DNA of 64,000 bases. Origin: an uncultured Gammaproteobacteria bacterium. GTDB lineage: Bacteria > Pseudomonadota > Gammaproteobacteria > Magnimaribacterales > D2472. Positions 3,807-64,000 of the stretch are shown one piece after another. The stretch spans positions 87,482-151,481 of the forward strand of contig CAYQIT010000002.1 in the NCBI GenBank assembly GCA_964417685.1, given 5' to 3'. A program made the translations under genes and the position numbers. Below the pieces are notes generated by a model. It worked only from the letters and a program-made list of their open reading frames with translations. It did not search any database and was not told the DNA's origin. The stretch's first letter is position 1; every line of letters begins with the position of its first letter.

Positions 3807-3835
3807 TTTTTTATTATCTTGCTATAATACTTTTT

Positions 3836-9400: not shown

Positions 9401-9477
<77 letters not shown>

Positions 9478-14951: not shown

Positions 14952-15037
14952 TGATCGAATAAGGTTTAAAGTACACCGGCTTGCTTTAGTTGCACAAGGC
15001 AGCATTCTTTTTAACATGTGCATCGAGGAATTTAATA

Positions 15038-18165: not shown

Positions 18166-18242
18166 TGGTGGCTATGGGTGGAATTGAACCACCGACCCCA
18201 GCGTTATGAGTGCTGTGCTCTAACCATCTGAGCTACATAGCC
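18166..18242 (-). tRNA. tRNA-Met (anticodon CAT), elongator type
   Basis: The reverse complement reads GGCTATGTAGCTCAGATGGTTAGAGCACAGCACTCATAACGCTGGGGTCGGTGGTTCAATTCCACCCATAGCCACCA. It closely resembles E. coli elongator tRNA-Met as I recall it. A lysidine-modified tRNA-Ile2 cannot be excluded from sequence alone. There is an A31-C39 mismatch. Confidence 0.8.
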
Positions 18243-21642: not shown

Positions 21643-21717
21643 TGGCTGGGGTGGTAGGATTCGAACCTACGCATGACGGGATCAAAACCCGTTGCCTTAC
21701 CGCTTGGCTACACCCCA
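21643..21717 (-). tRNA. tRNA-Gln (anticodon TTG)
   Basis: The reverse complement reads TGGGGTGTAGCCAAGCGGTAAGGCAACGGGTTTTGATCCCGTCATGCGTAGGTTCGAATCCTACCACCCCAGCCA. The anticodon loop TTTTGAT gives TTG. It resembles E. coli tRNA-Gln. It lies between ispE and prs, as in Pseudomonas. Confidence 0.9.
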
Positions 21718-32569: not shown

Positions 32570-32573
32570 TTAG

Positions 32574-33407
32574 ATGGCGATGAATACGCCTAATACTTCA
32601 ATTTTTTCATACGCTATTTATATTTTTATAGCTTCATTTTTCATTTATCTTGATTTTAAATTTAATACATTCTCAAAGCCAAAAAATTTTTATAATTCAA
32701 CCATATTAACTTCAAAATTTATTGTTACTGATTACTTTTTAGATCCCTTAACATCCATACCAAGTAATCTAAAATCAAAATCAATTTTAAAAAAAGAAAA
32801 TAATGAACTAAGAGATCAACTTAATAAAGAATACATTTCAAAATTTATTATTTCTAATAACGAAGGGTTTTTTCTAGAGGAAGACCAACTAGAGAACTTT
32901 ATCGAAAAAGAAGATAGCTTAAACAAAGCAATATTCTCGAAGTTAGTAAGTTTTGATTCTCAAAATTATTTCTGTTGCGATGATCATAAAATGTCAATCA
33001 GAACTATTTCAAAACCAGAAGATAATCTTATTCAGCGTCCCGTAATAAGTGAAAGCGGCATACTTGGCCAAGTCATAAGCGACTTAAATAACATACAAGA
33101 GGTAATGCTTCTATCCAATTCGAGACATTATATTCCAATAGTCTCAAAAGACTTTTATTGTAATGCTAAGGGATCTGGAAAACCTTTAATTGTAACTTGC
33201 TTATATAGCAAACTTATTTGGGAAGATCCTCTTGAGGTGGGACAAGACTTTTACTCATCCGGCTTAGGAGGTATTTTTCCAGTAGGAATTCATTTAGGCA
33301 AAGTTATAGAGATTAGAGAGCTCAATGAAATTCAAAGGGAAGTGAGATTTAAACTCCATGCAAACCCTCTTGAGCATAACTTTTTTGCAATCATGGTGAG
33401 TCAGTGA
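32574..33407 (+). CDS. mreC: Rod-shape-determining protein MreC
   Basis: 277 aa with an N-terminal TM, a coiled-coil segment (KKENNELRDQLNKE) and a C-terminal beta-rich domain. Position after mreB. Confidence 0.75.
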   Translation: MAMNTPNTSIFSYAIYIFIASFFIYLDFKFNTFSKPKNFYNSTILTSKFIVTDYFLDPLTSIPSNLKSKSILKKENNELRDQLNKEYISKFIISNNEGFFLEEDQLENFIEKEDSLNKAIFSKLVSFDSQNYFCCDDHKMSIRTISKPEDNLIQRPVISESGILGQVISDLNNIQEVMLLSNSRHYIPIVSKDFYCNAKGSGKPLIVTCLYSKLIWEDPLEVGQDFYSSGLGGIFPVGIHLGKVIEIRELNEIQREVRFKLHANPLEHNFFAIMVSQ

Positions 33408-33886
33408 ACCAAGAGAGCCTAACAAAAATTTTATTTTATATAGTCATTGGAATAAACCTAGAGGCATACATAAACAACTTTCTTGTTAATTTCTTAATTA
33501 TTGTTCCCTTATCATTCTTAATATACTCATACTTTGTATACAAAAGTAATATTGCATTCTCAGCAACAGCCTCCTTTTTTATTGGTATTTTTGTTGACTT
33601 GATCAGTGGAAGCTATATTGGTCTAAATGCTTTAGTTTATTTAATTACTACTTACATCATAAATAGTTATAAATATGTATTCAGGTTGTTTTCATATCTA
33701 CAGATTTCAATATTTTTTGGAATAATAGCAACGGTTTATATCGGACTTACTCATTTATTTATTAATATAAGTAATTATTCTTATCTGATACTTTTTGTTT
33801 CATTCGTAACTAACTCGATTTTAAGCTTTATACTTTCAGTAATAAGGGTTTATAGACCTATTTTTTTTAGAAATAGGAGGCTTTAG
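33404..33886 (+). CDS. mreD: Rod-shape-determining protein MreD
   Basis: 160 aa, polytopic and hydrophobic. ATGA-type overlap with mreC. Assigned mainly by position. Confidence 0.65.
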   Translation: MNQESLTKILFYIVIGINLEAYINNFLVNFLIIVPLSFLIYSYFVYKSNIAFSATASFFIGIFVDLISGSYIGLNALVYLITTYIINSYKYVFRLFSYLQISIFFGIIATVYIGLTHLFINISNYSYLILFVSFVTNSILSFILSVIRVYRPIFFRNRRL

Positions 33887-44116: not shown

Positions 44117-45175
44117 ATGCTAGTTGACAAAAATATCATTGATGACCTTAAAAACCAAGGCATTGAACCAGATATTCCACAGCTTGATTTTATTCATAGA
44201 GCTATAAAAATTCAGCCAAGCAAAAAAAATTTGCTTTCACGTCTAGTTTTGCCAAAAAGGGCTTCTTCAACAAGCGGCATATATTTGTGGGGTAAAGTTG
44301 GAAGAGGAAAGACAGTTATCTTAAGAAGTCTATATAAGCAATTAAATTTAAGGAAAGCTGAGTTTCATTATCTTGATCTCATGCGATTAATTCATTCAAA
44401 ACTAAAAGATTATAGGGGCTCAAAGAATCCACTAGATAAGGTTAATAATTATTTTTACTCAAAATATGATGTTTTATTAATTGATGAGTTTCAGGTTGAA
44501 GATGTTGCCGATGCCATGATCCTTTCAAATATCATCAAAGCATTTATAGATAAAGGTGTTTATTTATTTTTATCATCAAATGCTCATCCTAATGATTTGT
44601 ATAAGAATGGACTTCAAAGAGAAAAATTCATAGAAGTTATGCAATTCATGCAAGAAAGGGTTGAAGTTTTTGAGCTTAAGGGTGAGCATGATTATAGGTT
44701 AAAAAATATCTATGAAATAACTAAAGAGGGCCATGGCTCTGACTCTGATAAACAAATAAGATCAATAATAAAACTTAATTTTAATATAGAAGAAAATCTT
44801 AATACTTTTTTTGAAGTAAATGAGAGAAGTTTTAAATGTATTGCAGAAAATCATGATTTTTTATGGGTCTCATTTAAAAACTATTTTAGTCAACCAACTG
44901 GAGCGAATGATTTTGAAGAAATATGCAATAAATACAAGTGGATATTTATAAATGACTTTTCAATTCTTGATGACTCTAATTCTGATCTGATTAGACGTTT
45001 TATAGCGTTTATAGATATTGCTTATATTAATAAAGTCAATATCAGTTTTTTTTATGAGGGGATTAGGCCTGAAGATATATATAAAGGTGAGACGATGTCG
45101 CTGCTATGGGAGAGGTGTGAAAGCAGATTAATAGAAATGGGAACTGATGAGTATTTATCAAATAAAAAAAATTAA
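44117..45175 (+). CDS. zapE: Cell-division-associated AFG1-family ATPase ZapE
   Basis: 352 aa with Walker A GKVGRGKT, Walker B LLIDEF and an AFG1-like layout. Position is upstream of rplM-rpsI, as in E. coli. Confidence 0.8.
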   Translation: MLVDKNIIDDLKNQGIEPDIPQLDFIHRAIKIQPSKKNLLSRLVLPKRASSTSGIYLWGKVGRGKTVILRSLYKQLNLRKAEFHYLDLMRLIHSKLKDYRGSKNPLDKVNNYFYSKYDVLLIDEFQVEDVADAMILSNIIKAFIDKGVYLFLSSNAHPNDLYKNGLQREKFIEVMQFMQERVEVFELKGEHDYRLKNIYEITKEGHGSDSDKQIRSIIKLNFNIEENLNTFFEVNERSFKCIAENHDFLWVSFKNYFSQPTGANDFEEICNKYKWIFINDFSILDDSNSDLIRRFIAFIDIAYINKVNISFFYEGIRPEDIYKGETMSLLWERCESRLIEMGTDEYLSNKKN

Positions 45176-50534: not shown

Positions 50535-51347
50535 ATGTTATATTTTATCGCAACGCCAATTGGTAACCTAAATGATATATCACTTAGATCAATTGATCTT
50601 CTAAAAAATACAAATTATATATTTGCTGAAGATACTAGAAATACCAAGAAGCTTTTAGATTTTTTGGATATTAAAAAGAAAGTTCAATCTTTTCATGAGC
50701 ACAATGAAAAAGATATTACGCCTAAGATTCTTTCAATATTAAAAGATAAAAGCGATGTAGTTATAGTTTCAGATGCAGGAACTCCTGCAATCTCTGATCC
50801 CGGCTATTATTTGCTAACTCAATGTATAAAAAACGAAATTAGCTACACGGCATTACCAGGACCATCAAGCGTAACTAATGCTTTGCTATTGTCAGGCATG
50901 CCTCCATCTAGCTTCCTGTTTTTAGGATTTATTCCAAAAAAAGGTAAGCCTAAGCACAATTTTCTAGAATCAATCGGTAAAACCCAACATACAACAATAT
51001 TATTTGAAACTGCTAAAAGGATAGAAAATACAATATCTATTCTGAATAATTTATATCCTCAGGGTATTGATATGGCTATTTGTAGAGAAATGACAAAAAT
51101 ACATGAAGAAGTCATTAGAGGCAGCTCAACAGAGCTTGCGGAACTTATAAAATTAAATAAATTAACTCTCAAAGGTGAGATGGTTTTGGTATTAAGATTT
51201 TCAGATCCTAGCAGGGGTTTTGAAATAGACGAATCAATAATGAAAGCTTTTTTAGATAAGCTGCCCCCTAAAGATGCTGCAAAGTTATTATCGTTAGTCT
51301 CAAGAGAATCTAAAAGAGAAATTTATAAACAATTATTAGATTTATAA
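50535..51347 (+). CDS. rsmI: 16S rRNA C1402 2'-O-methyltransferase RsmI
   Basis: 270 aa, tetrapyrrole-methylase fold. N-terminus is LYFIATPIGNLNDISLRSIDLL...AEDTRNTKKLL. Confidence 0.9.
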   Translation: MLYFIATPIGNLNDISLRSIDLLKNTNYIFAEDTRNTKKLLDFLDIKKKVQSFHEHNEKDITPKILSILKDKSDVVIVSDAGTPAISDPGYYLLTQCIKNEISYTALPGPSSVTNALLLSGMPPSSFLFLGFIPKKGKPKHNFLESIGKTQHTTILFETAKRIENTISILNNLYPQGIDMAICREMTKIHEEVIRGSSTELAELIKLNKLTLKGEMVLVLRFSDPSRGFEIDESIMKAFLDKLPPKDAAKLLSLVSRESKREIYKQLLDL

Positions 51348-51369
51348 ATAATTTTATTGATATTATAAT
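51341..51369 (+). promoter_or_regulatory. Candidate promoter of rnpB
   Basis: TTTATA, a 17-nt spacer, TATAAT, then 6 nt to the G at 51376 that begins the P1 stem. It overlaps the rsmI stop. Confidence 0.35.
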
Positions 51370-51375
51370 TATCTT

Positions 51376-51704
51376 GAGTTGGTCGAACGATCGCTGTATT
51401 TGCAGAGGAAAGTCCGGACTTCACAGAGCAAGGTGCCAGGTAACTCCTGGGAAGCGCAAGCTTACGGAAAGTGCAACAGAAAATATACCGCCAATTTTTA
51501 TTGGTAAGGGTGAAATGGTGGGGTAAGAGCTCACCGCTTAAATGGAGACATTTGAGGCTTTGTAAACCCCAACCTGAAGCAAAACCAAATAGAAATCCTA
51601 TCAGGTTGCTCGCCTGGGATTTGGGTAGGTTGCTAGAGCGTTATGGCAACATAACGTCAAGATAGATGATCGTTGATTACAGAATCCGGCTTATAGACCA
51701 ACTC
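51376..51704 (+). ncRNA. rnpB: RNase P RNA, bacterial type A
   Basis: The P1 pairing is GAGTTGGTC...GACCAACTC. The universal blocks are present: GAGGAAAGTCCGGAC, ACAGAAAATATACCGCC, GGTAAGGGTGAAATGGTGGGGTAAGAGCTCACC and ACAGAATCCGGCTTA. About 329 nt. It lies between rsmI and mraZ, as in Pseudomonas. Confidence 0.94.
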
Positions 51705-51714
51705 TTTCTTTTAT

Positions 51715-51756
51715 AAGTGTGTAAAAGTGTGAAAAAAAATGTTTAAAGTGTGTAAA
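51715..51756 (+). promoter_or_regulatory. Three phased AAGTGTG direct repeats, candidate MraZ operator in the Pmra region
   Basis: AAGTGTG starts at 51715, 51725 and 51746, a spacing of 10 and 21 bp. The 11-mer AAGTGTGTAAA is exactly repeated at 51715 and 51746. The repeats lie 26-63 nt upstream of the mraZ ATG. Confidence 0.5.
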
Positions 51757-51777
51757 TTATGCTATATACTTTTTAAC

Positions 51778-52245
51778 ATGTACGGATTTAACACAGTTTC
51801 AATAGATGCAAAGGGAAGAATAGCGATACCTGCTAAATATAGAAACTACTTAGAAAAAACAAACGAAAAGATAATCTCTATAACAAGAGATCCACAGTAT
51901 CCATCTTTAAAAGTTTATTTTGGTTCTCAATGGCAACAAATTTCTCACCATTTAGAGTCCCTGCAAAGCCTTGATCCGGTAGTGAGAAAAATACAATGGA
52001 CCATATTAGGAAATGCTAGTGTAAATGAATTTGATCCATCTGGGAGGATGTTGGTAAATATCCCAACTGAGCTCAGAGAGTATGCAGAGATTAATGAGAA
52101 AAATAAATTGTGTCTTGTTGGCATGGGAAATAAATTTGAAATTTGGGAGCATGAGAATTGGTCTTCACGACAAAATGGTGGACCACTTTCTACTGAAATC
52201 TTAGATATTGTTTTACCAGAAACAATTAAATCTATGTCATTTTAA
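51778..52245 (+). CDS. mraZ: Transcriptional regulator MraZ
   Basis: Start set at the ATG at 51778 (MYGFNTVSIDAKGRIAIPAKYR...), matching homolog N-termini. 155 aa. It has two SpoVT/AbrB-like repeats, each with a DxxGR motif (DAKGR, DPSGR). Confidence 0.9.
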   Translation: MYGFNTVSIDAKGRIAIPAKYRNYLEKTNEKIISITRDPQYPSLKVYFGSQWQQISHHLESLQSLDPVVRKIQWTILGNASVNEFDPSGRMLVNIPTELREYAEINEKNKLCLVGMGNKFEIWEHENWSSRQNGGPLSTEILDIVLPETIKSMSF

Positions 52246-52257
52246 AAGGGGATTATT

Positions 52258-53370
52258 ATGAATTGGGAAGTAATTGGTCAAGAAATAGAAAACGCTAAAA
52301 TAAAAGTTGTTGGTGTCGGAGGAGCAGGCGGGAATGCTGTAATCCATATGATTAATCATAATATTGAAGGTGTTGATTTTATTTGTGCCAACACAGATAC
52401 CCAAGCACTTTCAGAAGCCAATGGAGCAATTTCTCTTAAACTTGGCAACGGTTTAACAAAAGGTTTAGGCGCAGGTGCAGATCCAGATATAGGAAGAAAA
52501 GCAGCTGAGAGCGATAGAGGTGCTATAGAAGAGCTTCTTAGTGGCGCAGATATGATATTTATAACTGCAGGAATGGGCGGAGGTACAGGAACAGGAGCTG
52601 CTCCAGTTATTGCGTCAATCGCAAAAGAAATGGGAGCTTTAACAGTTGCTGTTGTAACGAAACCATTCAAATTTGAAGGTAAAAGGAGAATGTCTGCTGC
52701 AGAAAAAGGCCTGGCATCTCTTGTTGAAGAAGTAGATAGCCTCATAACAATACCAAATCAAAAACTATATGAAATTCTGGGCGGAAATACTCCTATGCAA
52801 GAAGCTTTTGCAAAAGCTGATGATGTCTTAAAAGGAGCTGTGCAGGGAATATCTGACATTATCATGAAAAAAGGTCATATTAATGTTGACTTTGCTGATG
52901 TTAAAACCGTAATGTCTGAAAAAGGAATTGCAATGATGGGTACTGGAAGATCTAGCGGAAAAGATAGAGCGATTGAAGCTGCAACTCAAGCAGTAAAAAG
53001 CGAACTCTTAGAAGATATTAATCTTAAAAATGCTAGAGGCGTCTTAGTAAATATTACTGCAAAAGAGCCAACACTTAATGATCAAACAGATGTTGCAGAT
53101 ATTGTTGATGAAATTTGTAGTGAAGAAGCTAATATCATTTACGGTTTAGTTTATGACGAGACAGTAGAAGAAGACCTCTTGGTCACAATTGTAGCTACAG
53201 GAGTTGATCAAAGAGGGCCTTCATTAGCAATTGATAATCAGCCTTCTATTAAATTAAATCCTGTTGGTCTAAATAGAGAAAAACAACCCAGTCAAAAAGT
53301 TGGCACATCGTCTGCAGAGGAAATTAACTTCCTCGATGTGCCTACTTTTATGAGAAAGCAAGTAGATTAA
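52258..53370 (+). CDS. ftsZ: Cell division protein FtsZ
   Basis: 370 aa with GVGGAGGNAV, tubulin signature GGGTGTGAAPV, NVDFADVKTVM and the C-terminal anchor peptide LDVPTFMRKQVD. The core aligns with E. coli FtsZ throughout. SD AAGGGGA. Confidence 0.96.
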   Translation: MNWEVIGQEIENAKIKVVGVGGAGGNAVIHMINHNIEGVDFICANTDTQALSEANGAISLKLGNGLTKGLGAGADPDIGRKAAESDRGAIEELLSGADMIFITAGMGGGTGTGAAPVIASIAKEMGALTVAVVTKPFKFEGKRRMSAAEKGLASLVEEVDSLITIPNQKLYEILGGNTPMQEAFAKADDVLKGAVQGISDIIMKKGHINVDFADVKTVMSEKGIAMMGTGRSSGKDRAIEAATQAVKSELLEDINLKNARGVLVNITAKEPTLNDQTDVADIVDEICSEEANIIYGLVYDETVEEDLLVTIVATGVDQRGPSLAIDNQPSIKLNPVGLNREKQPSQKVGTSSAEEINFLDVPTFMRKQVD

Positions 53371-53371
53371 A

Positions 53372-54265
53372 ATGCTTCACTTTCCAGTCCTTCTGGAAGA
53401 ATCGCTAAGATATTTAATTTCTAACAAAGATGGCAATTACATTGACTGTACATATGGTAGAGGCGGCCATTCTCAAAAAATATTAGACGAAATAACCGCT
53501 AGCGGAACTCTTACTGCATTTGATAAAGACCCAGAAGCAATAGCAGATGCAAAACAGATTAATAGCAGTCAATTCACAGCAATTAACTCTTCATTTAACA
53601 AACTTGAAAGTTATTTCAAAGAGAATTCAGTAGATGGTATTTTGTATGATCTAGGTACTTGTTCAACGCATTTTGATGATGGTGATAGAGGCTTTAGTTT
53701 TATAAATAATGGCCCTTTAGATATGCGTTTCAACAATACAAAAGGTAAGCCACTTTATGATTGGATTAATAATGCATCCCATGATGAGATACTTAAAGTT
53801 CTATACGAATATGGTGACGAGAAGCATGGAAAGTTAATTACAAGGAAAATTTTAGAATATAGAGAAAAACAAAAAATATTAACAACATTTGATTTAGCAG
53901 ATTTAATAAAAGATTGTTATCCAGATAAGAATAAAAAAATTCATCCTGCAACTAAGTCATTCCAAGCTTTTAGAATTTTTATAAATGATGAGTTAAATGA
54001 AATTAATCAGTCTCTCAATCAGGCAATGAAAATCTTAAAAAAAGATGGCCGAATAGTCGTCATATCCTTTCATTCACTTGAAGATAATCTTGTAAAAAAT
54101 TTTTTTAAGCCAAATAAATTAGAGTTTCCAAAAGATATACCAATAAATACTATCGAAGATGAGAAATTTAAATGTATTGCAAAAAAAATAAGGCCTAGCA
54201 CAGATGAGATTAATATAAATTCAAGATCCAGAAGTGCGATTATGAGGGTATTTAAGAAATTATGA
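53372..54265 (+). CDS. rsmH: 16S rRNA m4C1402 methyltransferase RsmH (MraW)
   Basis: 297 aa. N-terminus is HFPVLLEESL, followed by DCTYGRGGHS, DLGTCS and ISFHSLED. Confidence 0.93.
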   Translation: MLHFPVLLEESLRYLISNKDGNYIDCTYGRGGHSQKILDEITASGTLTAFDKDPEAIADAKQINSSQFTAINSSFNKLESYFKENSVDGILYDLGTCSTHFDDGDRGFSFINNGPLDMRFNNTKGKPLYDWINNASHDEILKVLYEYGDEKHGKLITRKILEYREKQKILTTFDLADLIKDCYPDKNKKIHPATKSFQAFRIFINDELNEINQSLNQAMKILKKDGRIVVISFHSLEDNLVKNFFKPNKLEFPKDIPINTIEDEKFKCIAKKIRPSTDEININSRSRSAIMRVFKKL

Positions 54266-54543
54266 GTTTAAATTCAAAAACTTTTGTTATTTTCCTACTC
54301 ATTTTTTTCATAACTTTTTTATCTTTTGAAAATATTAAACTTTCATGGGAGGTTGCCAAACTTCATCAAAATAATGAAAACCTCCAAGTTGAATATAATA
54401 AATTCAAAGATCATAATTTGAAGTTGGTCACCCAATACCACTCAGAAAATTCGATTGCAATTATTGAAAAACAATCTAAAGAAGTTCTTGGTATGTTAAA
54501 AAAGAAACCAATAACAATTACGAATAATGAAGAAGGCAAATAA
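54262..54543 (+). CDS. ftsL: Cell division protein FtsL
   Basis: 93 aa, bitopic, with a TM followed by a coiled-coil-like segment. Position is between rsmH and ftsI, overlapping both. Confidence 0.7.
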   Translation: MSLNSKTFVIFLLIFFITFLSFENIKLSWEVAKLHQNNENLQVEYNKFKDHNLKLVTQYHSENSIAIIEKQSKEVLGMLKKKPITITNNEEGK

Positions 54544-56134
54544 ATACATAAATATAAGACTTTTGCTGGTATGCGCTGCATTGTCACTAGCCATCATAAG
54601 TGTAGTAACTAAACTGGTTTTATTGAGCATTTCAGATGGGGTTTTTTTACAAAATGAAGGTAAAAAACGTTATATAAAATACAGAGAGATTAAATCAGTT
54701 AGAGGTGGTATTTATGATAGAAATAATTTTCCTCTAGCAATCTCTATAGTTAATTATGATTTATATGCATTGAGTGGATTAACAAAAAATGAGCTCAAAA
54801 AAGTAAATGTTGTTTTGGATAATGAACTTAATTTTGATAAAAATTTTCTTTTTAAGAAAAAGACTTTGCTTAAAAAGAATATTACTCCAACAGAACATAT
54901 TGCTTTAAAGGAATTAAATTTAAATAGGCTCGAAGTAGAAGTTAGACATAGTAGGCATTATCCTCTTGGAGACCAGATAGCTCCATTGGTTGGTTTTTAT
55001 GGAAAAGATGGCGCTCAAGAAGGCTTAGAGATGAGTTACAACTTTTTATTAGATGGGATCAATGGTAGAGAGAAATTATATAAAAATGCTAAACAAGAAA
55101 TTATTTCAAAACCCATCGAGGTAATTAATAGAGTTCCAGGTAAAGATATCATTTTAACTATTGATTCAACTATTCAATTTTATGCATACAAATATCTGGC
55201 TGAAGCTGTAAAAAATAATAATGCAAAGTCAGGAAGCGTTATAGTTCTGGATAATAAAGAGGGTGAAATATTAGCAATTGCAAGCTACCCATCATATAAC
55301 CCGAATGACCCAATGAGATCTATACAAAAGAATAGAGCATTAGTTGATGCGTATGAATTTGGTTCTGCAATAAAACCAATTCTTCTATCTTTTGCAATTG
55401 ATGAAGAAGTTATAGATTTGGACGAAGAAATTTATACTCCCCAACGATTCGAGATTGAAAATAAAATTATCTCAGATCCTAAAAACCACCAATCATTGAA
55501 ACCTATGGATATTATTGCCTATTCTAGTCAAGTTGGAGCAACAAAAGTTGCTCTAAAAACAGGATATGACAGCATTAAAAAAAATTATATTAATTTTGGA
55601 TTTTCAAAGCCTATTTCAATTAATTTTCCATCATCATCATTGGGGTATTTCAATTTTAAAGATAGCGTGAGTGATAGGGAGCTTGCAGCGTTGGGATATG
55701 GCTATGGCTTCGAAGTTAGCCCATATCAATTAGCAAGCGCATATTCTGTTTTTGCAAATGGCGGAATATTAAAAGATTTTGTAATCATAAAAGATGAGCC
55801 AGTTATATCCCAGCAAGTTATTTCAAAAGAGTCAGCAGATTATATTTTGCAATCTTTAGAGGCAGTTGTTGAATATGGAACTGGAAAATTAGCTGGCTTA
55901 AAAAATTTTGATACTGGAGGAAAAACTTCAACCGTGCATAAGGTTTCAGTGACCGGATATAAAGATGATTCTTATAGAGCATCATTTGTGGGCATAGCTC
56001 CAGCTAATGAAAAATCTTTAACAATAATGGTTTCTATAGACAACCCGAGTCTAAATTCATATTCAGGTGGAGCTGTTGCAGCTCCTATATTTGCAAAAAT
56101 TGCTGATAGTACTCTTAATTATTTGGGTTATTGA
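54527..56134 (+). CDS. ftsI: Peptidoglycan D,D-transpeptidase FtsI (PBP3)
   Basis: 535 aa with an N-terminal TM and a class B PBP layout. S280-A-I-K is present. The positions aligned to SxN and KTG read S333-S-Q and K466-T-S (see findings). Confidence 0.9.
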   Translation: MKKANKYINIRLLLVCAALSLAIISVVTKLVLLSISDGVFLQNEGKKRYIKYREIKSVRGGIYDRNNFPLAISIVNYDLYALSGLTKNELKKVNVVLDNELNFDKNFLFKKKTLLKKNITPTEHIALKELNLNRLEVEVRHSRHYPLGDQIAPLVGFYGKDGAQEGLEMSYNFLLDGINGREKLYKNAKQEIISKPIEVINRVPGKDIILTIDSTIQFYAYKYLAEAVKNNNAKSGSVIVLDNKEGEILAIASYPSYNPNDPMRSIQKNRALVDAYEFGSAIKPILLSFAIDEEVIDLDEEIYTPQRFEIENKIISDPKNHQSLKPMDIIAYSSQVGATKVALKTGYDSIKKNYINFGFSKPISINFPSSSLGYFNFKDSVSDRELAALGYGYGFEVSPYQLASAYSVFANGGILKDFVIIKDEPVISQQVISKESADYILQSLEAVVEYGTGKLAGLKNFDTGGKTSTVHKVSVTGYKDDSYRASFVGIAPANEKSLTIMVSIDNPSLNSYSGGAVAAPIFAKIADSTLNYLGY

Positions 56135-56135
56135 T

Positions 56136-57569
56136 ATGATAAAAAAATTAATGTCTATTTTGAATATAGATTTTATCCCGACTAGAAAAATTTCAGCAAT
56201 TACAAATTTTTCTAAAGATGTTAAAAAAGACTCTATATTTTTTGCTCTAGATGGCGTTAACAGACATGGTACATCCTATATAGATGAAGTTATATCTAAA
56301 GACCCAATGCTTATTATTCATAACAACAAGGATTATGCATGTGGTCACAATAATGTTTTTTTTGTTGAGGATTTGACTGAAAAGCTACTACCATTTTTAT
56401 GCGAATACTATCAAATTGATTTAGATAAATTTAAGTTTATTGGATTTACAGGAACAAATGGAAAGACCTCAGCTGCTTATTTCTGTCACCAAATTCTTAT
56501 TTCTATGAATTTATCATCATCATACATAGGAACTTTAGGGTTTCTAAATAACAGCATAAATAATTTTATAGAGTCTAAAAATACAACCCCAGGTGTATTT
56601 GAGATTTTTAATTTTTTATCGACTTTAGATCAGAGCAGAACTAATCATATATGTTTAGAGGTTTCCTCTCATGCTCTCGATCAAAATAGATTAAAAGGAA
56701 TCCAATTAGATGTCTCATCAATTATGAATATAACTAAGGATCATCTCGACTATCATCTAACAGAAGAGAGCTATATAAAGTCGAAGTTAAAAATCATTGA
56801 TATAACAAAATCTGGATCAACTTTCGTTAACAATTTATTAAAAAAAGTCATTATAAATCATACCAATCATAATCTAGACTCACTAAAATTTCTTGATAGC
56901 TATGGCTCTAATGATGATTGTTTTTTACATATTGAAGAATGTAATATGAAGCAGTCTAAATTTTCTTTAAGAATAAATTCAGACTTATTTAATTTTTCGC
57001 AAAAATTATTTCCAGAATTTAATATTCAAAACTTTATTTATGCTTTTTTATCAATTCATAGACTTTATCAAGATAAAGATTTATCAAAGCTGAGCTTAGA
57101 TTCTATTAAATTACCGAAAGGCAGATTACAGATTGTTGAGGATATTAAAGATAATATCATCATCGACTATGCACATAATCCTGATAGTTTTAAAAATATC
57201 CTAAAGCCGATAAATGAACAATTTAAAGGCATTATTACCTTATTTGGTTGTGGTGGTGACAGGGATAAAGAAAAAAGGCCATTAATGTTAAAGACAGCAT
57301 TAAAATATTCTGAAACTGTTATATTCACATCTGACAATAATAGAAGTGAATGCTTTGAATCTATTGTGGATGATGCTATGAATGGACATAGTTCCACAAA
57401 TATTAAAATTATCAAAGATAGAAAGAAAGCAATTATTCAAGGCTGCAAGTTATTAACAAAAGACAAATGCCTTCTAATTTTAGGTAAGGGTCATGAAGAG
57501 ACGCAAGAAGAGAATGGAGAAAGGTTCTATTTTAGCGATGAAGAGGTTGTGAATGAAATTTATAAGTAA
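56136..57569 (+). CDS. murE: UDP-MurNAc-tripeptide synthetase MurE (meso-DAP-adding type)
   Basis: Start set at the ATG at 56136 (MIKKLMSILN...), 2 nt after the ftsI stop. The tracked 56067 start would overlap ftsI by 68 nt. Contains GTNGKTS and a DNNR variant of the DNPR DAP-specificity motif. Confidence 0.9.
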   Translation: MIKKLMSILNIDFIPTRKISAITNFSKDVKKDSIFFALDGVNRHGTSYIDEVISKDPMLIIHNNKDYACGHNNVFFVEDLTEKLLPFLCEYYQIDLDKFKFIGFTGTNGKTSAAYFCHQILISMNLSSSYIGTLGFLNNSINNFIESKNTTPGVFEIFNFLSTLDQSRTNHICLEVSSHALDQNRLKGIQLDVSSIMNITKDHLDYHLTEESYIKSKLKIIDITKSGSTFVNNLLKKVIINHTNHNLDSLKFLDSYGSNDDCFLHIEECNMKQSKFSLRINSDLFNFSQKLFPEFNIQNFIYAFLSIHRLYQDKDLSKLSLDSIKLPKGRLQIVEDIKDNIIIDYAHNPDSFKNILKPINEQFKGIITLFGCGGDRDKEKRPLMLKTALKYSETVIFTSDNNRSECFESIVDDAMNGHSSTNIKIIKDRKKAIIQGCKLLTKDKCLLILGKGHEETQEENGERFYFSDEEVVNEIYK

Positions 57570-58893
57570 TACTAATGATATTAGGCATCATCTCGGTATA
57601 AAAAGCGAATCTTATCCAGATCCAATATCAAATATTACATTTGATTCTAGGAAGGTAAAAAAATCTTCATTTTTTATATGCTTAAAGGGTGAAAGTTCCG
57701 ATGGCAATGAATTCATTGATGAGGCTTTAAATAAAGGAGCAAGCTTAATCTTATCTAATAGAAAGAAGCTTGCTGAAAATAATAAAAAAATCATTTATAC
57801 ACCCGACACTATTAAAGCTTTGAGAAAAATCTCCAAAAGTATTATTAATTCATTTTCAAACAACAGGATTGGTATTACAGGAAGTAATGGAAAGACTACA
57901 ACTACTAAAATTATTACAAAAACACTTTTCAATTCATCAGGAACTATAAAAAATTTTAATAATGAAATTGGAATGCCGTTAAGCATTATGAATGCTAGGG
58001 CGCAGGCAAAGAACCTGGTTATTGAAATGGGTGCTGCTAAATTCAAAGATATCAATTATTTAAGTTCAATACTTAAACCTAGCATCGGAATAATTACTAA
58101 TATTGGCCATTCTCATCTAGAAAATCTACAAAATACTGAGGGTGTATTAAAAGTAAAGTCTGAATTGATACCAAACATTACAAAAGGGGGATATTTAATA
58201 GTACCTGCAAATAATGAAAAGCATCTTAGTTACTGGAAAAAAATTAGAAGTGATATAAAGGTTATAACATTTAGCGCACATAAGAATGCTGACTTTATTG
58301 CAAAAAATATAAAAGAATCTAGCGCCGGCATGATTTTTTCAATAGTATCAAAAAATTATGATGTAGATTTAGATATCAAAACTGATTTAATGGGGATGCA
58401 TAATATTGAAAATATCCTTGCAGCATACATAGTAAATTTTCTAACTCAAAAGAATAATAAATATTTTCAAAAGAAAATATCATTAGTTGATAGACATACT
58501 TCAAGACAGAGGAAGCTTGATTGGATAAATAATTCTATGCTTATTGATGATTCTTACAATGCAAATCCTGACTCGGTTAAGAAAAGCTTAGAGCTTTTAT
58601 CAAAATATAAAGAAAGAAAGTTATTTATTATGGGAGATATGCTAGAGCTTGGAAAGCAGAGCAGCAGTTATCACAAACAGATAGGGAAGTATGCCTCAGA
58701 TAAAGGCATAGACATTATTTTGGCTATTGGAGATCATACTAAGCATTCAGCAAATGAATTTGGGGAAAATGGCTTTTTCTTTGAATGTGAAAAAGAATTA
58801 AAAGATTTTATTAATAACAATGTAAAATCTAACGATATAGTTTTACTCAAAGGCTCAAGGGGCATGAAGATGGAAAGGTTTATAAATGTTTGA
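57553..58893 (+). CDS. murF: UDP-MurNAc-pentapeptide synthetase MurF
   Basis: 446 aa with P-loop GITGSNGKTTT and DDSYNANPDS. Confidence 0.9.
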   Translation: MKFISNTNDIRHHLGIKSESYPDPISNITFDSRKVKKSSFFICLKGESSDGNEFIDEALNKGASLILSNRKKLAENNKKIIYTPDTIKALRKISKSIINSFSNNRIGITGSNGKTTTTKIITKTLFNSSGTIKNFNNEIGMPLSIMNARAQAKNLVIEMGAAKFKDINYLSSILKPSIGIITNIGHSHLENLQNTEGVLKVKSELIPNITKGGYLIVPANNEKHLSYWKKIRSDIKVITFSAHKNADFIAKNIKESSAGMIFSIVSKNYDVDLDIKTDLMGMHNIENILAAYIVNFLTQKNNKYFQKKISLVDRHTSRQRKLDWINNSMLIDDSYNANPDSVKKSLELLSKYKERKLFIMGDMLELGKQSSSYHKQIGKYASDKGIDIILAIGDHTKHSANEFGENGFFFECEKELKDFINNNVKSNDIVLLKGSRGMKMERFINV

Positions 58894-59971
58894 ATATCTT
58901 GGATCTGTTCTTGTAAGCGTTGATCCTGGCTTTGATGTTTTAAGATATTTAACGGTTAGAACTCTTGGTGGAACCGTAACAGCGTTATTAATCACTATAG
59001 TATTTGGTCCTTTGTTTATAAATAAACTTAAATCGATGCAGTTTGAGCAATATGTTCGAAACGAAGGGCCTAAATCCCACTACAAAAAAACAGGCACTCC
59101 AACCATGGGAGGCATTTTAATAATTTCGTCTATGTTAATTTCAACCCTTCTTTGGGCAGACCTAAGCAACAGGTATATTTGGGTAGTCCTCGTCACTACA
59201 ATTTCTTTTGCTTTTATAGGTTTCTTAGATGATTTTCTCAAGATTAAAAATAAAAGTTCGGACGGGCTGACATCTAAACAAAAGATACTCATGCAACTTG
59301 TTGTGTCGATATCAATAATATCTTACCTATTTTTTTCGCATGACCAAGTCGCCGAGATTTCATTTATTGTTCCATTTTTTAAGAATTTTATAATCCCAAT
59401 GGGAACTTTATTATTTATATTTATTGGTACGTTTGTTTTAATCGGTTCTTCAAATGCTGTAAATCTTACAGACGGTTTAGATGGTTTAGCCATTTTGCCA
59501 TCTGTGCTTATTGCTGGTGCATTAGGGCTTATAGCTTATAGTATGGGTAATCAGATCATTGCAGATTACCTATATCTGCCTCATTTGCCTTTATCAGGAG
59601 AGTTAATTGTTTTTTGTGGTGCGTTAATTGGATCAGGTATTGGCTTTCTTTGGTATAACACATATCCAGCTCAAGTATTTATGGGAGACGTTGGCTCATT
59701 AACACTTGGTGCAATTTTAGGAATAATGGCAGTTATATTAAGGCATGAATTGGTATTTGCAATTATGGCAGGTGTATTTGTTATCGAGACTTTAAGTGTT
59801 GCGATACAGGTAATTTCATTCAAAACTAGAGGTAAAAGAGTTTTCTTGATGGCACCAATTCATCATCATTTTGAACTTAAGGGATGGCCTGAACCTAAAA
59901 TAATTGTGAGGTTCTGGATAATTACTCTTGTCTTGATTCTTGTAGCATTAGCTACTTTAAAATTAAGGTGA
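58886..59971 (+). CDS. mraY: Phospho-MurNAc-pentapeptide translocase MraY
   Basis: 361 aa, polytopic, with NAVNLTDGLDGLA and APIHHHFELKGW. Confidence 0.96.
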   Translation: MFEYLGSVLVSVDPGFDVLRYLTVRTLGGTVTALLITIVFGPLFINKLKSMQFEQYVRNEGPKSHYKKTGTPTMGGILIISSMLISTLLWADLSNRYIWVVLVTTISFAFIGFLDDFLKIKNKSSDGLTSKQKILMQLVVSISIISYLFFSHDQVAEISFIVPFFKNFIIPMGTLLFIFIGTFVLIGSSNAVNLTDGLDGLAILPSVLIAGALGLIAYSMGNQIIADYLYLPHLPLSGELIVFCGALIGSGIGFLWYNTYPAQVFMGDVGSLTLGAILGIMAVILRHELVFAIMAGVFVIETLSVAIQVISFKTRGKRVFLMAPIHHHFELKGWPEPKIIVRFWIITLVLILVALATLKLR

Positions 59972-59980
59972 TATCTGGAA

Positions 59981-61009
59981 ATGAAATCCTTAATTTATGG
60001 ATATGGAATTACAGGAAAGTCTTTTGAACGATACTTAAAAAAAAAGAAAGTAGCCTACGATATCTTCGATCAAAACATTCCAGAATATAGTATAAAACTT
60101 GATCTAAATAATTATAAAAATATTCTTTGTAGTCCAGGTATTAATGCAGATGAATTTGATCATTTGCAAGCATCAAACAAAGTTTTAACAGATATTGATA
60201 TTTTTTTTGAGGAAGATAATTCTATTAAAATTGGAATTACGGGTACCAATGGGAAAAGTACAACTTGCTTCCATTTAGCTCAATTACTTAAACAGGAGTT
60301 TGGAGTTAATTTAATTGGCAATTTTGGAAATCCGGTTCTGGATGACATCAATAACGGCAATGAATATTCAATAATTGAACTCTCTAGTTTCCAATTGCAT
60401 AAAATGAAAAAAAATAAATTAGATTTTGGAGTGTTGTTGAATATAGAACCTGATCACTTAGATTATCATAAGGATTTTTTATCATACAAAGCTGCAAAAG
60501 AAAGAATCCTCTCTGCCAATAAATCAAGTCAAGAAAATGACCCATATTTGTTATTTGAATGGATTACAAAAAGAAAATGTAAAAAAACAAAGTTAAAAAA
60601 TCTACCATATAGATATCAATTTATTTCTAAAAATATAATTAACGATTCCAAATCAACAAATACCTCATCCTTAAAATATGCAATTAGCAATGCCAATATG
60701 TTTTTTCAAGATGATTATATTTTGATATGTTGCGGTGATCCCAAGAAAGAAAATTTTCCAAAATTAGAAATATCTGGACCTGCAAAAATATTAATTTATG
60801 GCAATCATGCAAAGCAAATCGATGCTTGTATCTCACATCCAAATAAAAACTTATTTGATGATGCAAACCTCTTATTGGAATATTTACAAAACAAGTCTAT
60901 CTTTTCTAATATCTTATTTTCACCCGGTTTTCCAAGCGGACTAGATTACAAGAATTTTGAGGAAAGGGGCGATGATTTTAACAATCTGATATACAACTTA
61001 AAAAAATGA
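59981..61009 (+). CDS. murD: UDP-MurNAc-L-Ala--D-Glu ligase MurD (unusually compact)
   Basis: 342 aa with P-loop GITGTNGKST, ELSSFQL, DSKSTN and a C-terminal SPGFPSGLDYKNFEERGDDF. All three Mur-ligase domains are recognisable but shortened. Confidence 0.85.
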   Translation: MKSLIYGYGITGKSFERYLKKKKVAYDIFDQNIPEYSIKLDLNNYKNILCSPGINADEFDHLQASNKVLTDIDIFFEEDNSIKIGITGTNGKSTTCFHLAQLLKQEFGVNLIGNFGNPVLDDINNGNEYSIIELSSFQLHKMKKNKLDFGVLLNIEPDHLDYHKDFLSYKAAKERILSANKSSQENDPYLLFEWITKRKCKKTKLKNLPYRYQFISKNIINDSKSTNTSSLKYAISNANMFFQDDYILICCGDPKKENFPKLEISGPAKILIYGNHAKQIDACISHPNKNLFDDANLLLEYLQNKSIFSNILFSPGFPSGLDYKNFEERGDDFNNLIYNLKK

Positions 61010-62118
61010 ATGAAATTTTTCGAAATAATTTACTGATAGTTATTCCATTTTCAATTCTTATTTTAATTGGTTTGATAATGATTTCATCAGCGAGTGTTTT
61101 TATAGCGGAAGCAAATTACAATGATCCATTTTTTTATATCTCAAAACAATTAATATTTGTTTCTATGGGATTTCTTGCTATGGTTTTTTTTCTTATTATC
61201 CCATCTAACTTTTTACTTAAAATTGACTGGTTATTGATACTTATAAGTATATTGTTGCTTGTATTGCTTTTTGTTCCTGATATTGGCACATCTGTAAATG
61301 GAAGTATAAGATGGATAAGAGTTGGATCAATTGGCATACAGCCATCTGAGATATGTAAGTTTAGCCTCATTATCTATATCTCTGGTTATTGTTTGCGGCG
61401 AACTTCAGAACTTCATTCATTAAGAAATTTTTTAAAGCCTCTAGCCCTTCTTTCTATAATTTCACTTTTAATCCTATCTCAGCCTGATTTAGGATCTACA
61501 GCAATAATCTGTTTGGTTGTAGTTGCTATTCTGTTCTACGCTGGGATATCTTTTTTTCAATTTTCACTTTTGACTATTTTAATTGCTATGCTTGGTTTTG
61601 CAGCAATCACTTCTTCGCCAATGAGGATAGCTAGGATGATGGCATATATGGATCCATTTGATCCTGATGTTGTTTTAGGAAGTGGATACCAGTTAGCAAA
61701 TTCACTCATAAGTATTGGCCAAGGTGGTTTTCTTGGCCTTGGGCTTGGTAATAGTTTTCAAAAGAATTTTTTTCTTCCTGAGGCGCACACAGATTTTATT
61801 TTTGCAGTATTGGTAGAGGAGCTTGGGGTGATTGGGGGTATATTCTTGATTGCTGTTTATGTGGTTTTGTTTATAGGAATGCTCAATGTTGCTCTTTCTT
61901 GTATGAAATTAAATAAAGTTTTTCAAGGCTTGGTGTGCTTTGGCACAACGATACTTTTTGCCTCTCAAACGCTATTTAATATATCTGTAAATATTGGACT
62001 TTTACCAACAAAAGGACTGACATTGCCATTCATTAGTTATGGAGGAACAAGCATAATTATAATGATGTCATTAGTTGCTATAGTTCTTAGAATTAATAAC
62101 GAAAACAAACTATCATAG
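61006..62118 (+). CDS. ftsW: SEDS-family peptidoglycan glycosyltransferase FtsW
   Basis: 370 aa, polytopic, with the SEDS motifs QPSE, LPEAHTDFIF and LPFISYGGTS. Confidence 0.92.
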   Translation: MNEIFRNNLLIVIPFSILILIGLIMISSASVFIAEANYNDPFFYISKQLIFVSMGFLAMVFFLIIPSNFLLKIDWLLILISILLLVLLFVPDIGTSVNGSIRWIRVGSIGIQPSEICKFSLIIYISGYCLRRTSELHSLRNFLKPLALLSIISLLILSQPDLGSTAIICLVVVAILFYAGISFFQFSLLTILIAMLGFAAITSSPMRIARMMAYMDPFDPDVVLGSGYQLANSLISIGQGGFLGLGLGNSFQKNFFLPEAHTDFIFAVLVEELGVIGGIFLIAVYVVLFIGMLNVALSCMKLNKVFQGLVCFGTTILFASQTLFNISVNIGLLPTKGLTLPFISYGGTSIIIMMSLVAIVLRINNENKLS

Positions 62119-62124
62119 TAGTTT

Positions 62125-63177
62125 ATGAATATAATAATTTCAGCCGCAAAGACTGGAGGCCATGTGTTCCCAGCAATAGAAGTGGCAAAAGAATTTGCAT
62201 CAAAGGAATGTAATATCTTTTTTATTGGAACTGGTTCAAAAATTGAGAAAAACGCTTTAGAGGGTTTGTCATTTAACTATATACCGCTAAAAATAGATGG
62301 TTTCAGAGGCAAATCACCTTTAAATAAAATTTTGTCTTTGAAAGATACAGTATTTAATATTTTCAAAGTTTATTTCATAATAAAAAGAAACAACATTAAA
62401 TGTATTATAACTTTTGGTGGATTTATTACTGTGCCAGTAGGCTTAGCTGGTTGGCTTGCACGTACGAAGGTCTTCACGCACGAACAAAATTCGGTAATGG
62501 GTTCAGCTAATAAATTACTTTCTAAATTTGCAACAATTAATTTCCTTGCCTTCCCTATAACAGGCAATATTAAACGAAGTTTAATCTCAGGAAATCCAAT
62601 AAGAACATCTTTTAACATTAACAAGGCTCAAGAGAAAGACCGAGACACCAATAAAATTAGGATTTACATCACAGGCGGCAGTCAAGGGGCAAAATATTTC
62701 AATGAAACTTTTCCAAAAAGCTTTGAAGATGTTGAAGATTTAGTACAAATCAAACATCAGTGTGGAAACGGCAACTTCAATGAAGTACAAAATTTATACT
62801 CTAAAACTAATATTGATTTTAGCGTATCAGAATTTTATAAGGATCCAAGTCTTGAAATTGAATGGGCAGATTTTGTTATTTCAAGATCAGGTGCATTAAC
62901 AATATCGGAGGTCTCATCGCTTTCTAAAGGCATGCTTATGATTCCTTTGCCTATCTCCATTGATAACCATCAATATCTTAATGCAAAACATATTTTAGAT
63001 ATTAAAATGGGGGTCATACATGAGGAAGCCGATGGTATAGATAAACTTAATGAAAAATTAAAGAAGATTATTAGTCAAAAAACTTATCTAAATTGGCAAA
63101 AGCAAACCAATTCAAGTCACAAAAATGCAACAAAATTTATACTTAATAACATCTTAAAAGAATATGGAGCCATTTAA
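62125..63177 (+). CDS. murG: UDP-GlcNAc:lipid I GlcNAc transferase MurG
   Basis: 350 aa. N-terminus is AAKTGGHVFPA, followed by ITGGSQGA, with the GT28 C-terminal domain (ISRSGALTISE). Confidence 0.92.
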   Translation: MNIIISAAKTGGHVFPAIEVAKEFASKECNIFFIGTGSKIEKNALEGLSFNYIPLKIDGFRGKSPLNKILSLKDTVFNIFKVYFIIKRNNIKCIITFGGFITVPVGLAGWLARTKVFTHEQNSVMGSANKLLSKFATINFLAFPITGNIKRSLISGNPIRTSFNINKAQEKDRDTNKIRIYITGGSQGAKYFNETFPKSFEDVEDLVQIKHQCGNGNFNEVQNLYSKTNIDFSVSEFYKDPSLEIEWADFVISRSGALTISEVSSLSKGMLMIPLPISIDNHQYLNAKHILDIKMGVIHEEADGIDKLNEKLKKIISQKTYLNWQKQTNSSHKNATKFILNNILKEYGAI

Positions 63178-64000
63178 AAAGATTAGAAAAATTCATTTTG
63201 TTGGTATTGGTGGTGCTGGCATGATTGGCATAGCAAGGGTATTGCTTCAAAAAGGCTACAAAGTTTCAGGGTCTGATTTGTCTATTTCATCAGATTTATT
63301 AAAGTTAAAGAAGGAGGGCGCAACAGTCTTTAAAGGGCATGCTGGAGCAAATGTTATTAACAAAGATCTTATAGTACTCTCATCTGCAATTAATAAGAAT
63401 AACCCTGAGTTAATAAATGCTATTAAGCTTGGTATCACTGTGATTCCAAGAGCCGAAATGTTGGGAAGCATTATGAGAGGTTACGATAGTATTGCAATTG
63501 CTGGCAGTCATGGGAAAACAACTACAACAAGCATGCTTGCAAAAATCTTTAGTGAGGGCAATCTAAGCCCTACTTATGTTGTGGGCGGAAAAGTTCTTAG
63601 CTCTGATCTTAATTCTGATTTAGGAAGTGGAAAATATCTTATCGCAGAAGCAGATGAAAGTGACGGCTCATTTATTCATTTGCATCCCAATGCAGCTGTG
63701 GTTACAAATATTGATGATGATCATCTAGTCCATTATGAGAACAATTTTGAAAAACTATTAGATGCTTTTGTAACATTCTTAGATAATGTGCCATTTTTTG
63801 GATATATAGTTATCAATAATGATGATAAAAACATCAAGAAAATTTCAAAAAGAATTTCAAGAAAACAGATTAAATTTGGTTTCTCAAAATCTTCTGATTT
63901 TCAGATACAACAAGGTGACTATAGTAAAGGTTTTCAAAATTTCTCTATCTTTAATAATTATAAAAATAAAAAATATACCTTTAGCATTTCTTCACCGGGT
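63164..64000 (+). CDS. murC: UDP-MurNAc--L-alanine ligase MurC, 3'-truncated by the window edge
   Basis: Not in the ORF track because it runs off the window. The frame is open from the ATG at 63164 to base 64000 (279 codons). It reads MEPFKKIRKIHFVGIGGAGMIGIARVL...AGSHGKTTTTSML...EADESDGSF. Overlaps the murG end by 14 nt. Confidence 0.92.
   Translation, partial: MEPFKKIRKIHFVGIGGAGMIGIARVLLQKGYKVSGSDLSISSDLLKLKKEGATVFKGHAGANVINKDLIVLSSAINKNNPELINAIKLGITVIPRAEMLGSIMRGYDSIAIAGSHGKTTTTSMLAKIFSEGNLSPTYVVGGKVLSSDLNSDLGSGKYLIAEADESDGSFIHLHPNAAVVTNIDDDHLVHYENNFEKLLDAFVTFLDNVPFFGYIVINNDDKNIKKISKRISRKQIKFGFSKSSDFQIQQGDYSKGFQNFSIFNNYKNKKYTFSISSPG

Follow-up and report, generated by a model that had tools for sequence, protein, structure and literature searches.

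The window analysed here is a stretch of 64,000 nucleotides (nt) from contig CAYQIT010000002.1 of an uncultured gammaproteobacterium of the SAR86 cluster. It contains a cluster of genes for division and the cell wall (dcw) in which ftsZ lies between mraZ and rsmH, at the 5′ end. In the canonical proteobacterial dcw cluster, as found in E. coli, Pseudomonas and Burkholderia, the order is mraZ-rsmH-ftsL-ftsI-murE-murF-mraY-murD-ftsW-murG-murC-ddl-ftsQ-ftsA-ftsZ-lpxC. Few bacterial gene orders are as conserved as this one, with ftsZ last among the division genes, and it has long been argued that it coordinates division with wall synthesis and sets the FtsZ:FtsA ratio.

The ftsZ gene and its product

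The original prediction, made from the letters of the window, described a full-length canonical FtsZ, a 12-nt spacer with a Shine-Dalgarno (SD) sequence after mraZ, a 1-nt spacer before rsmH, and a standard order for the rest of the cluster from rsmH to murC. All of its statements about the sequence proved correct, the spacers by direct inspection and the gene order by open reading frames (ORFs) and family matches. The product scores 399.4 bits against the equivalog family TIGR00065, above the curated cutoff of 295.2, and carries the Pfam domains Tubulin (PF00091, 5.4e-50) and FtsZ_C (PF12327, 1.5e-24), together with the GTPase signature GGGTGTGAAPV. Its top match among solved structures is 2vaw, labelled simply FtsZ (392 bits, residues 4-330), and its C-terminal peptide, FLDVPTFMRKQVD, which aligns with YLDIPAFLRRQAD of 2vaw, corresponds in sequence to the conserved peptide predicted to bind FtsA and ZipA. 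Both ZipA and FtsA occur in SAR86 genomes according to a published marker table (PMC11582366). A tblastn search of the window found one FtsZ-like sequence, that of this gene. The features of the locus are collected in Table 1.

Table 1. Features of the dcw locus and of the region immediately upstream of it, in positions of the window
Feature	Position	Strand	Basis and remarks
rsmI (16S rRNA C1402 2'-O-methyltransferase)	50535..51347	+	TIGR00096, 226.8 bits
Promoter-like site for rnpB, TTTATA-17-TATAAT	51341..51369	+	consensus match alone; its end is 6 nt from where Rfam places the start of rnpB
rnpB, RNase P RNA (bacterial class A)	51375..51709	+	Rfam RF00010, 323 bits, full length
Four phased MraZ boxes (putative operator)	51715..51752	+	AAGTGTG at 51715, 51725 and 51746; degenerate box with TGT at 51740-51742
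Pmra-like core promoter, TTTAAA-17-TATACT	51742..51770	+	consensus scan; overlaps box 4 and abuts box 3; putative function
mraZ	51778..52245	+	155 aa; TIGR00242, 1.2e-25; Pfam MraZ, two stretches
mraZ-ftsZ spacer, aaggggattatt	52246..52257	+	12 nt; carries GGGG SD
ftsZ	52258..53370	+	370-aa ORF; TIGR00065, Pfam and structure match; relocated to the 5′ end of the cluster
rsmH (mraW)	53372..54265	+	TIGR00006, 333 bits; begins 1 nt past the ftsZ stop
ftsL-like small membrane protein	54262..54543	+	93 aa; named by position
ftsI (class B penicillin-binding protein)	54527..56134	+	NCBIfam penicillin-binding protein matches; Pfam PBP_dimer and Transpeptidase
murE, murF, mraY, murD, ftsW, murG	56136..63177	+	overlaps or gaps of at most 9 nt
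murC	63164..64000	+	cut at the window end

Conservation of the gene order in SAR86

The position of ftsZ between mraZ and rsmH is confirmed as real, and all the SAR86 lineages sampled share it. At least 23 contigs encode the window's murG product, from which the six with most flanking DNA were taken (L001-L006: five ENA metagenome assemblies and the NCBI metagenome-assembled genome (MAG) GCA_045563895.1). All six show the order mraZ-ftsZ-rsmH and, past murC, continue with ddl, a 205-aa ftsQ-like gene and ftsA, followed 81 nt later by rpsF-rpsR-rplI-dnaB-alr-pyrG-kdsA-eno. A scan of species-representative genomes with the window FtsZ gave 12 genomes of the SAR86 cluster (99-70% identical) and 68 other bacteria (at most 57%). 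The arrangement rsmI-(rnpB)-mraZ-ftsZ-rsmH-ftsL-ftsI is present in the 12 SAR86 species, so that the adjacency of mraZ and ftsZ, for which a screen of relatives had been suggested, is general among them. In the other bacteria, ftsA lies directly upstream of ftsZ in 64 of the 68 and neither mraZ nor rsmH adjoins ftsZ in any (0/68).

Three further SAR86 species with whole clusters (MraY 82-86% identical) have both the ftsZ-rsmH and the ftsA-rpsF junctions. They are among five SAR86 contigs beyond the representatives that carry the mraZ-ftsZ-rsmH order, which, with the six assemblies and the 12 representatives, makes a total of 23 loci. The metagenome matches listed for a deep-branch MraY were mostly contigs from outside SAR86, which were used as controls, and also yielded two contigs of interest, L092 and L125. 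The former, from the deepest SAR86 branch sampled, covers the 3′ end of the cluster alone, and ftsA is followed there by rpsF. When the junctions are pooled, SAR86 has ftsZ followed by rsmH in 16/16 loci and ftsA followed by rpsF in 10/10, and neither an ftsA-ftsZ nor an mraZ-rsmH junction was seen. In other lineages, ftsZ is followed by rsmH in 0/29, ftsA by ftsZ in 73/78 and mraZ by rsmH in 23/29, and no ftsA-rpsF junction was seen.

In the ten SAR86 loci that reach the 3′ end, rpsF-rpsR-rplI-dnaB begins about 80 nt past ftsA, and the usual position of ftsZ is therefore empty, which settles what lies beyond murC, where the window ends. The gene lpxC, the next one after ftsZ in gammaproteobacterial controls (loci L020, L022, L026 and L046), is absent from the window and from every SAR86 locus examined. 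The new junctions are themselves uniform, with an mraZ-ftsZ spacer of 8-13 nt containing GGGG in all the SAR86 species representatives and an ftsZ-rsmH gap of 1-5 nt across SAR86 species. With regard to copy number, Table S1 of PMC11582366 gives one TIGR00065 FtsZ in 46 of 47 SAR86 genomes, none in the remaining one, and never two; for other markers, this table records up to 2-3 copies.

One variant deserves separate mention. In L174, a single JGI contig of a SAR86 relative, positions 3001-4578 contain an in-frame MraZ::FtsZ junction (...GGSLSTV|MNFEVIGQ...). The final 16 codons of mraZ, its stop and the spacer (~63 nt) are absent, and the resulting 525-aa product is predicted to contain MraZ, Tubulin and FtsZ_C domains. 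Either a genuine deletion or a fault of the assembly could account for this.

Native origin of the relocated gene

In neighbour-joining trees, the FtsZ sequences of SAR86 are monophyletic (100/100 bootstrap replicates) and sister to the FtsZ group of gamma- and betaproteobacteria (95/100). Between the window and loci L007 and L008, FtsZ is 98-99% identical and the flanking proteins are 64-81% identical, a pattern that might be taken for recent horizontal transfer or recombination of ftsZ. This explanation was rejected, since the divergence of third codon positions in ftsZ is close to that in its neighbours (identities of 0.47-0.59 and 0.41-0.57, respectively; for the window against L007/L008, 0.56-0.59 and 0.44-0.57). 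The sequences rather indicate that ftsZ is a long-resident native gene which, in the clade of the window, L007 and L008, is under unusually strong purifying selection, with synonymous sites near saturation. Both the phylogeny and the neighbour-like synonymous divergence agree with the earlier view that the native gene was relocated and that it is not a foreign paralog.

Two observations on individual parts of the gene can be added. Over the final ~45 codons of ftsZ (53248-53370), synonymous-site conservation among 13 SAR86 species is 0.67-0.71, compared with a gene mean of 0.51, which may reflect a constraint from translation initiation or coupling of rsmH, or an internal signal for the downstream genes. 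In the MAG FRAM18_bin311 (L012:10001-11110), a frameshift interrupts ftsZ after an ORF of 26 aa, and yet tblastn gives an alignment over all 370 residues; the assembly probably contains an indel error here, and a pseudogene is less likely.

A sister lineage without mraZ

The metagenome contig L125 (31% guanine plus cytosine) encodes very divergent proteins, and the nearest relatives of its MraY beyond its own lineage are those of SAR86. Two related loci, L172 and L173 (GCA_002690945.1), show the order petBC-sspA-lpoA-like-rsmI-rnpB-ftsZ-rsmH-ftsL-ftsI ... ddl-(ftsQ)-ftsA-rpsF-rpsR-rplI-dnaB. The genome GCA_002690945.1 has been listed as SAR86-affiliated, with no family given, and in the same work the SAR86 family CHAB-I-7 is described as having an especially fast clock and genomes of ~1.05 Mb (PMC11582366). 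No mraZ was found in the L172 and L173 loci (regions 3307-4761 of L172 and 3293-4749 of L173), where the operator has also been lost, and ftsZ is the first dcw gene. The junction of ftsA with rpsF is kept in the three loci of this lineage (3/3). The FtsZ proteins of L172 and L173 are 43-47% identical to that of the window, and their FtsA proteins 35-37%; the C-terminal peptides of FtsZ are degenerate (...RIDILEVIRSIEN and ...KIDIKETLKGLKD).

In both loci rnpB is recognised with 313-316 bits, and its 3′ end lies ~19 nt before the ftsZ ATG, so that the ftsZ promoter must either overlap the ribozyme gene or be replaced by co-transcription with it. In L173, the sequence TATAAA is followed, after 7 nt, by the ftsZ ATG, which resembles the start pattern of mraZ in SAR86. 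As a separate observation, ddl is directly followed by ftsA in L173 (15634-17738), with no ftsQ-like ORF between them, and ftsQ may have been lost there; L172 has a ftsQ-like ORF of 187 aa (16570-17133).

A tree built from eight concatenated dcw proteins (2,778 columns) unites SAR86 and the mraZ-less lineage in one clade (100/100), within which the mraZ-bearing SAR86 sequences form an exclusive subclade (100/100). The simplest history would be a single relocation of ftsZ in the common ancestor of SAR86 and its sister lineage, with later loss of mraZ in the latter, because two rare junctions are common to both lineages.

Operator, promoter and translation signals

The 68 nt between rnpB and mraZ hold the four-box array and the promoter-like site. 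The published MraZ operator consists of GTG(G/T) boxes 6 nt apart, and four AAAGTGT boxes are present in M. genitalium (PMC12957436). Operators of this kind have three or four such boxes in a ~10-nt period upstream of mraZ; the array of the window, with boxes at 51715, 51725, about 51738 and 51746, fits this definition and is thus predicted to be an MraZ operator. In the 16 SAR86 sequences aligned (alignment A1), boxes 1, 2 and 4 all keep an unchanged GTG core, and the pattern AGTGTN5AGTGT occurs once in the window, where 0.09 would be expected. Box 4 falls in the spacer of the -35/-10-like pair, and a homologous pair, TTGCAA-17-TATATT, is seen in L009, L010, L013, L090 and L091. As judged from the sequence, this overlap is the layout of a promoter that its repressor would occlude.

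As for the putative repressor itself, two DXXXR motifs are needed for DNA binding by MraZ of B. subtilis (bioRxiv 10.1101/2022.02.09.479790), and the window MraZ has two, DAKGR (residues 10-14) and DPSGR in the second half-domain; its TIGR00242 score of 90.2 bits is under the curated cutoff of 98.35. The longest mraZ ORF (168 aa) would begin at ATG 51739, a start chosen by several metagenome gene callers, and its extension (51739-51777) would cross MraZ box 4 and the promoter-like site. The annotations of NCBI MAGs give mraZ 155 aa. Taking into account the homology to MraZ (MYGFNTVSIDAKGR), these 155-aa calls and the position of the operator, the true start is most likely ATG 51778.

Of the 16 SAR86 sequences, 11 have a -10-like TATA(C/T)T whose end is only 5-7 nt from the mraZ ATG (in the window, 7 nt), and no SD was found before mraZ in the sequences of alignment A1. 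This closeness of the -10-like hexamer to the ATG, together with the missing SD, is characteristic of leaderless transcripts and suggests, speculatively, a leaderless mraZ message. Among the 12 dcw starts in the window, the only strong SD is that of ftsZ. No terminator-like site was found on the + strand from rnpB to ftsL (51300-54000), nor in positions 12400-16400 of L001. A promoter of ftsZ embedded in the 3′ end of mraZ was also considered and regarded as unlikely: this end has no excess of synonymous conservation, and the sigma-70 scan gave no + strand match inside mraZ.

Proposed model and alternative explanations

The reading that we favour, with a probability of about 0.72, is that a single ancestral relocation made ftsZ a promoter-proximal gene of a tightly packed operon under MraZ; co-transcription and control by MraZ are here predictions from the sequence. 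From mraZ to ftsA there are 16 contiguous co-oriented genes, which overlap by up to 17 nt or are separated by up to 12 nt, and it is proposed that they are transcribed as one operon from a promoter located in the 68 nt between rnpB and mraZ. MraZ would autorepress this promoter through its four phased boxes, because these cover it. The second cistron, ftsZ, would be the first structural product, and one promoter could suffice to produce FtsZ in large excess over the remaining division proteins, given that the gene is promoter-proximal and has the sole strong SD of the cluster. Position and SD would thus replace the internal ddlB-ftsQ-ftsA promoters of E. coli, which would fit an extremely streamlined genome.

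Several observations weigh against parts of this model. The FtsZ-only tree joins the mraZ-less lineage to SAR86 in just 50/100 replicates, and this ambiguity is the reason why the concatenated tree was used for placing that lineage; moreover, all trees are neighbour-joining trees of fast-evolving, AT-rich lineages, in which long-branch attraction is possible. The promoter and terminator scans yield consensus matches in AT-rich DNA, and since the totals (13, against 13.3 expected) do not exceed those of shuffled sequence, the evidence that they provide is weak in both directions. There is no terminator between rnpB and mraZ, and transcription that reads through from the rnpB promoter may therefore play a part; internal promoters within coding sequence, as for E. 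coli ftsZ, are possible. The single copy of ftsZ is deduced from the marker table and from loci of ~20 kb, or ~74 kb around the locus in the species of the window. Finally, ftsZ stays before rsmH in the sister lineage, which keeps this order without mraZ, and control by MraZ is therefore not what holds it there. The adaptive rationale is an inference, and a neutral rearrangement frozen by operon compaction would look identical.

Such a neutral history, in which ftsZ was inserted by chance in a small-genome ancestor with its own promoter inside mraZ and was then frozen by the lack of intergenic space, is regarded as rather unlikely. Selection cannot be shown by gene order alone, promoter-like matches are as frequent in shuffled sequence and the sister lineage dispenses with mraZ, all of which would suit it; however, both junctions are kept across lineages whose RsmH and FtsI are ~47-50% identical, the GGGG SD is conserved in a spacer with no room for an intergenic promoter, and the absence of excess synonymous conservation in the 3′ end of mraZ speaks against a promoter there. 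A somewhat better case, still doubtful, can be made for transcription of ftsZ largely from the rnpB promoter, as part of one precursor that is then processed, with the MraZ boxes acting at most as a roadblock. The gene rnpB, 68 nt upstream of mraZ, has the same orientation and no terminator-like site intervenes, and the ~19 nt from rnpB to ftsZ in the mraZ-less lineage leave no room for a separate intergenic promoter. Yet a -35/-10-like pair with operator boxes is present between rnpB and mraZ in 16/16 SAR86 sequences, which is how an autonomous repressible promoter would look, and in the sister lineage the -10-like TATAAA lies 7 nt before the ATG, with a -35 that could sit in the 3′ end of rnpB.

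A broader reading would be that division control has been rewired across the whole order, with FtsZ synthesis driven from a single start abutting rnpB, where transcription would come either from a promoter of the leaderless type or as read-through of rnpB; we consider it improbable. If true, in the mraZ-less lineage RNase P RNA and an ftsZ-led dcw mRNA would come from one precursor, or the promoter would be embedded in a ribozyme gene, and the supply of the Z-ring would be coupled to stable-RNA synthesis instead of to the ddlB-ftsQ-ftsA promoters.

That the 5′ ftsZ is a duplicate or a foreign gene, with a second, native ftsZ elsewhere, would require this copy to lie outside the ~74 kb covered around the locus in the window's species. 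This is very improbable, as ftsZ does not follow ftsA in any of the ten SAR86 loci, the FtsZ count is one in nearly all the genomes of a table in which other markers reach 2-3, and the protein is full-length, with a putative FtsA/ZipA-binding tail, very strong purifying selection and a branch beside the gamma- and betaproteobacterial FtsZ. An error of assembly or binning where ftsZ meets mraZ or rsmH, such as the chimeric join against which the original prediction had cautioned, is effectively refuted, for the six assemblies and 17 further SAR86 loci share these joins across samples, assemblers and species, and the junction sequences have diverged along with the species.

Other genes of the window

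The consensus match TTTATA-17-TATAAT upstream of rnpB is the highest-scoring one on the + strand of 51300-54600 (10/12). The position of rnpB is the same in L009, L011 and L016, and also in the mraZ-less L172 and L173, and rsmI is upstream of mraZ in every SAR86 locus covering that region. Within the cluster, the 93-aa ftsL-like protein has no significant family match (Pfam; DivIC, 0.098), and its orthologue in L174 gives a weak DivIC match. The identities of murE to murG were taken from ORFs and from the Pfam annotation of identical genes in L001-L006, with murG recognised by TIGR01133.

Upstream of mraZ, the window contains rpoN-lptB-lptA-kdsD, mlaC-ibaG-murA, zapE, rplM-rpsI, petABC, sspA, an lpoA-like gene, rsmI and rnpB. 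This layout, petABC-sspA-lpoA-like-rsmI-rnpB included, is ordinary for gammaproteobacteria such as Pseudomonas, and the mraZ end of the cluster would accordingly have stayed in place, with ftsZ moving in. Other morphogenesis and division genes in the window are mreB-mreC with an mreD-like gene (31520-33886) and zapE (44117-45175), 7 kb upstream of mraZ, which encodes an AFG1 ATPase known as a Z-ring-associated factor. Rfam also identifies a ribosomal S15 leader and four tRNA genes (14976-15094; 9223-9306; 9401-9474; 18169-18242; 21646-21717), which are ordinary features.

Comparison with known systems

Compared with the canonical proteobacterial cluster, that of SAR86 has the same gene set, orientation and order except for ftsZ, with mraZ first, a putative MraZ-box operator upstream of it, and rsmI further upstream. 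It differs in that ftsZ is second and not fifteenth, the dcw genes end with ftsA, which adjoins rpsF, and lpxC is unlinked; the succession of mraZ by ftsZ is found in 0/29 of the control loci from outside SAR86. In E. coli, promoters of ftsZ lie inside ddlB-ftsQ-ftsA, whereas in B. cenocepacia a single Pmra transcript under MraZ spans the whole cluster, in canonical order, and ddl-ftsA contains no promoters (PMC7761207). The original prediction that ftsZ lies directly behind an MraZ-controlled promoter is supported by the conserved four-box operator that overlaps the -35/-10-like pair, but full dependence of ftsZ on Pmra and MraZ is a kind of control already known from B. cenocepacia, and also from Mycoplasma, and what is new in SAR86 is the position of the gene.

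A likeness in regulation is found in the minimal dcw operon of the Mollicutes. M. genitalium has mraZ-mraW-ftsA*-ftsZ behind four AAAGTGT-type boxes with a 10-nt period (PMC12957436), so that ftsZ belongs there to a short operon just behind a four-box MraZ promoter; the putative SAR86 operator is also an array of four boxes (AAGTGTG). However, Mycoplasma deleted the intervening wall genes and kept the order mraW-ftsA-ftsZ, while SAR86 keeps 16 genes and has moved ftsZ. In B. subtilis, the operon mraZ-mraW-ftsL-pbpB is repressed by MraZ through two DXXXR motifs and phased repeats (bioRxiv 10.1101/2022.02.09.479790). As predicted for SAR86, this operon is autoregulated, and MraZ restricts a division protein whose gene lies shortly downstream. 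In B. subtilis, this protein is FtsL, with ftsZ transcribed separately and far downstream, whereas in SAR86 FtsZ itself would come first under such control. The place of ftsZ in the cluster is not invariable among bacteria, as can also be seen in lineages with dispersed or truncated clusters, such as Cyanobacteria with isolated ftsQ-ftsZ, or Chlamydiae and Planctomycetes without ftsA and ftsZ (PMC8871954). In these, the clusters are fragmented or genes have been lost; the SAR86 cluster is intact and compact, and ftsZ has moved within it.

In the literature, no description was found of ftsZ at the 5′ end of an intact dcw cluster, in SAR86 or elsewhere, although a mention in Megrian et al. 2022 is possible, and the main text of the SAR86 isolate paper (PMC11582366) does not mention ftsZ, dcw, cell division or synteny. 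The original suggestion that the order was undescribed therefore holds as far as the papers searched are concerned; the order itself is fixed across SAR86 and present in many public MAGs.

Significance

SAR86 is among the most abundant bacterial groups of the surface ocean and has a cultured member, strain HIMB1674. The arrangement has a practical side, as caution would be advisable with growth indices based on ftsZ transcripts in marine taxa, given that the SAR86 ftsZ probably shares the mraZ promoter and lies ~550 nt from rnpB. In a wider sense, a variant that extends over the whole order provides a natural experiment on the purpose of dcw gene order, with ftsZ promoter-proximal, 13 genes away from ftsQ-ftsA and, in one lineage, even without mraZ. 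It also bears on the way in which streamlined genomes may exchange multi-promoter regulation for gene position and translation signals.

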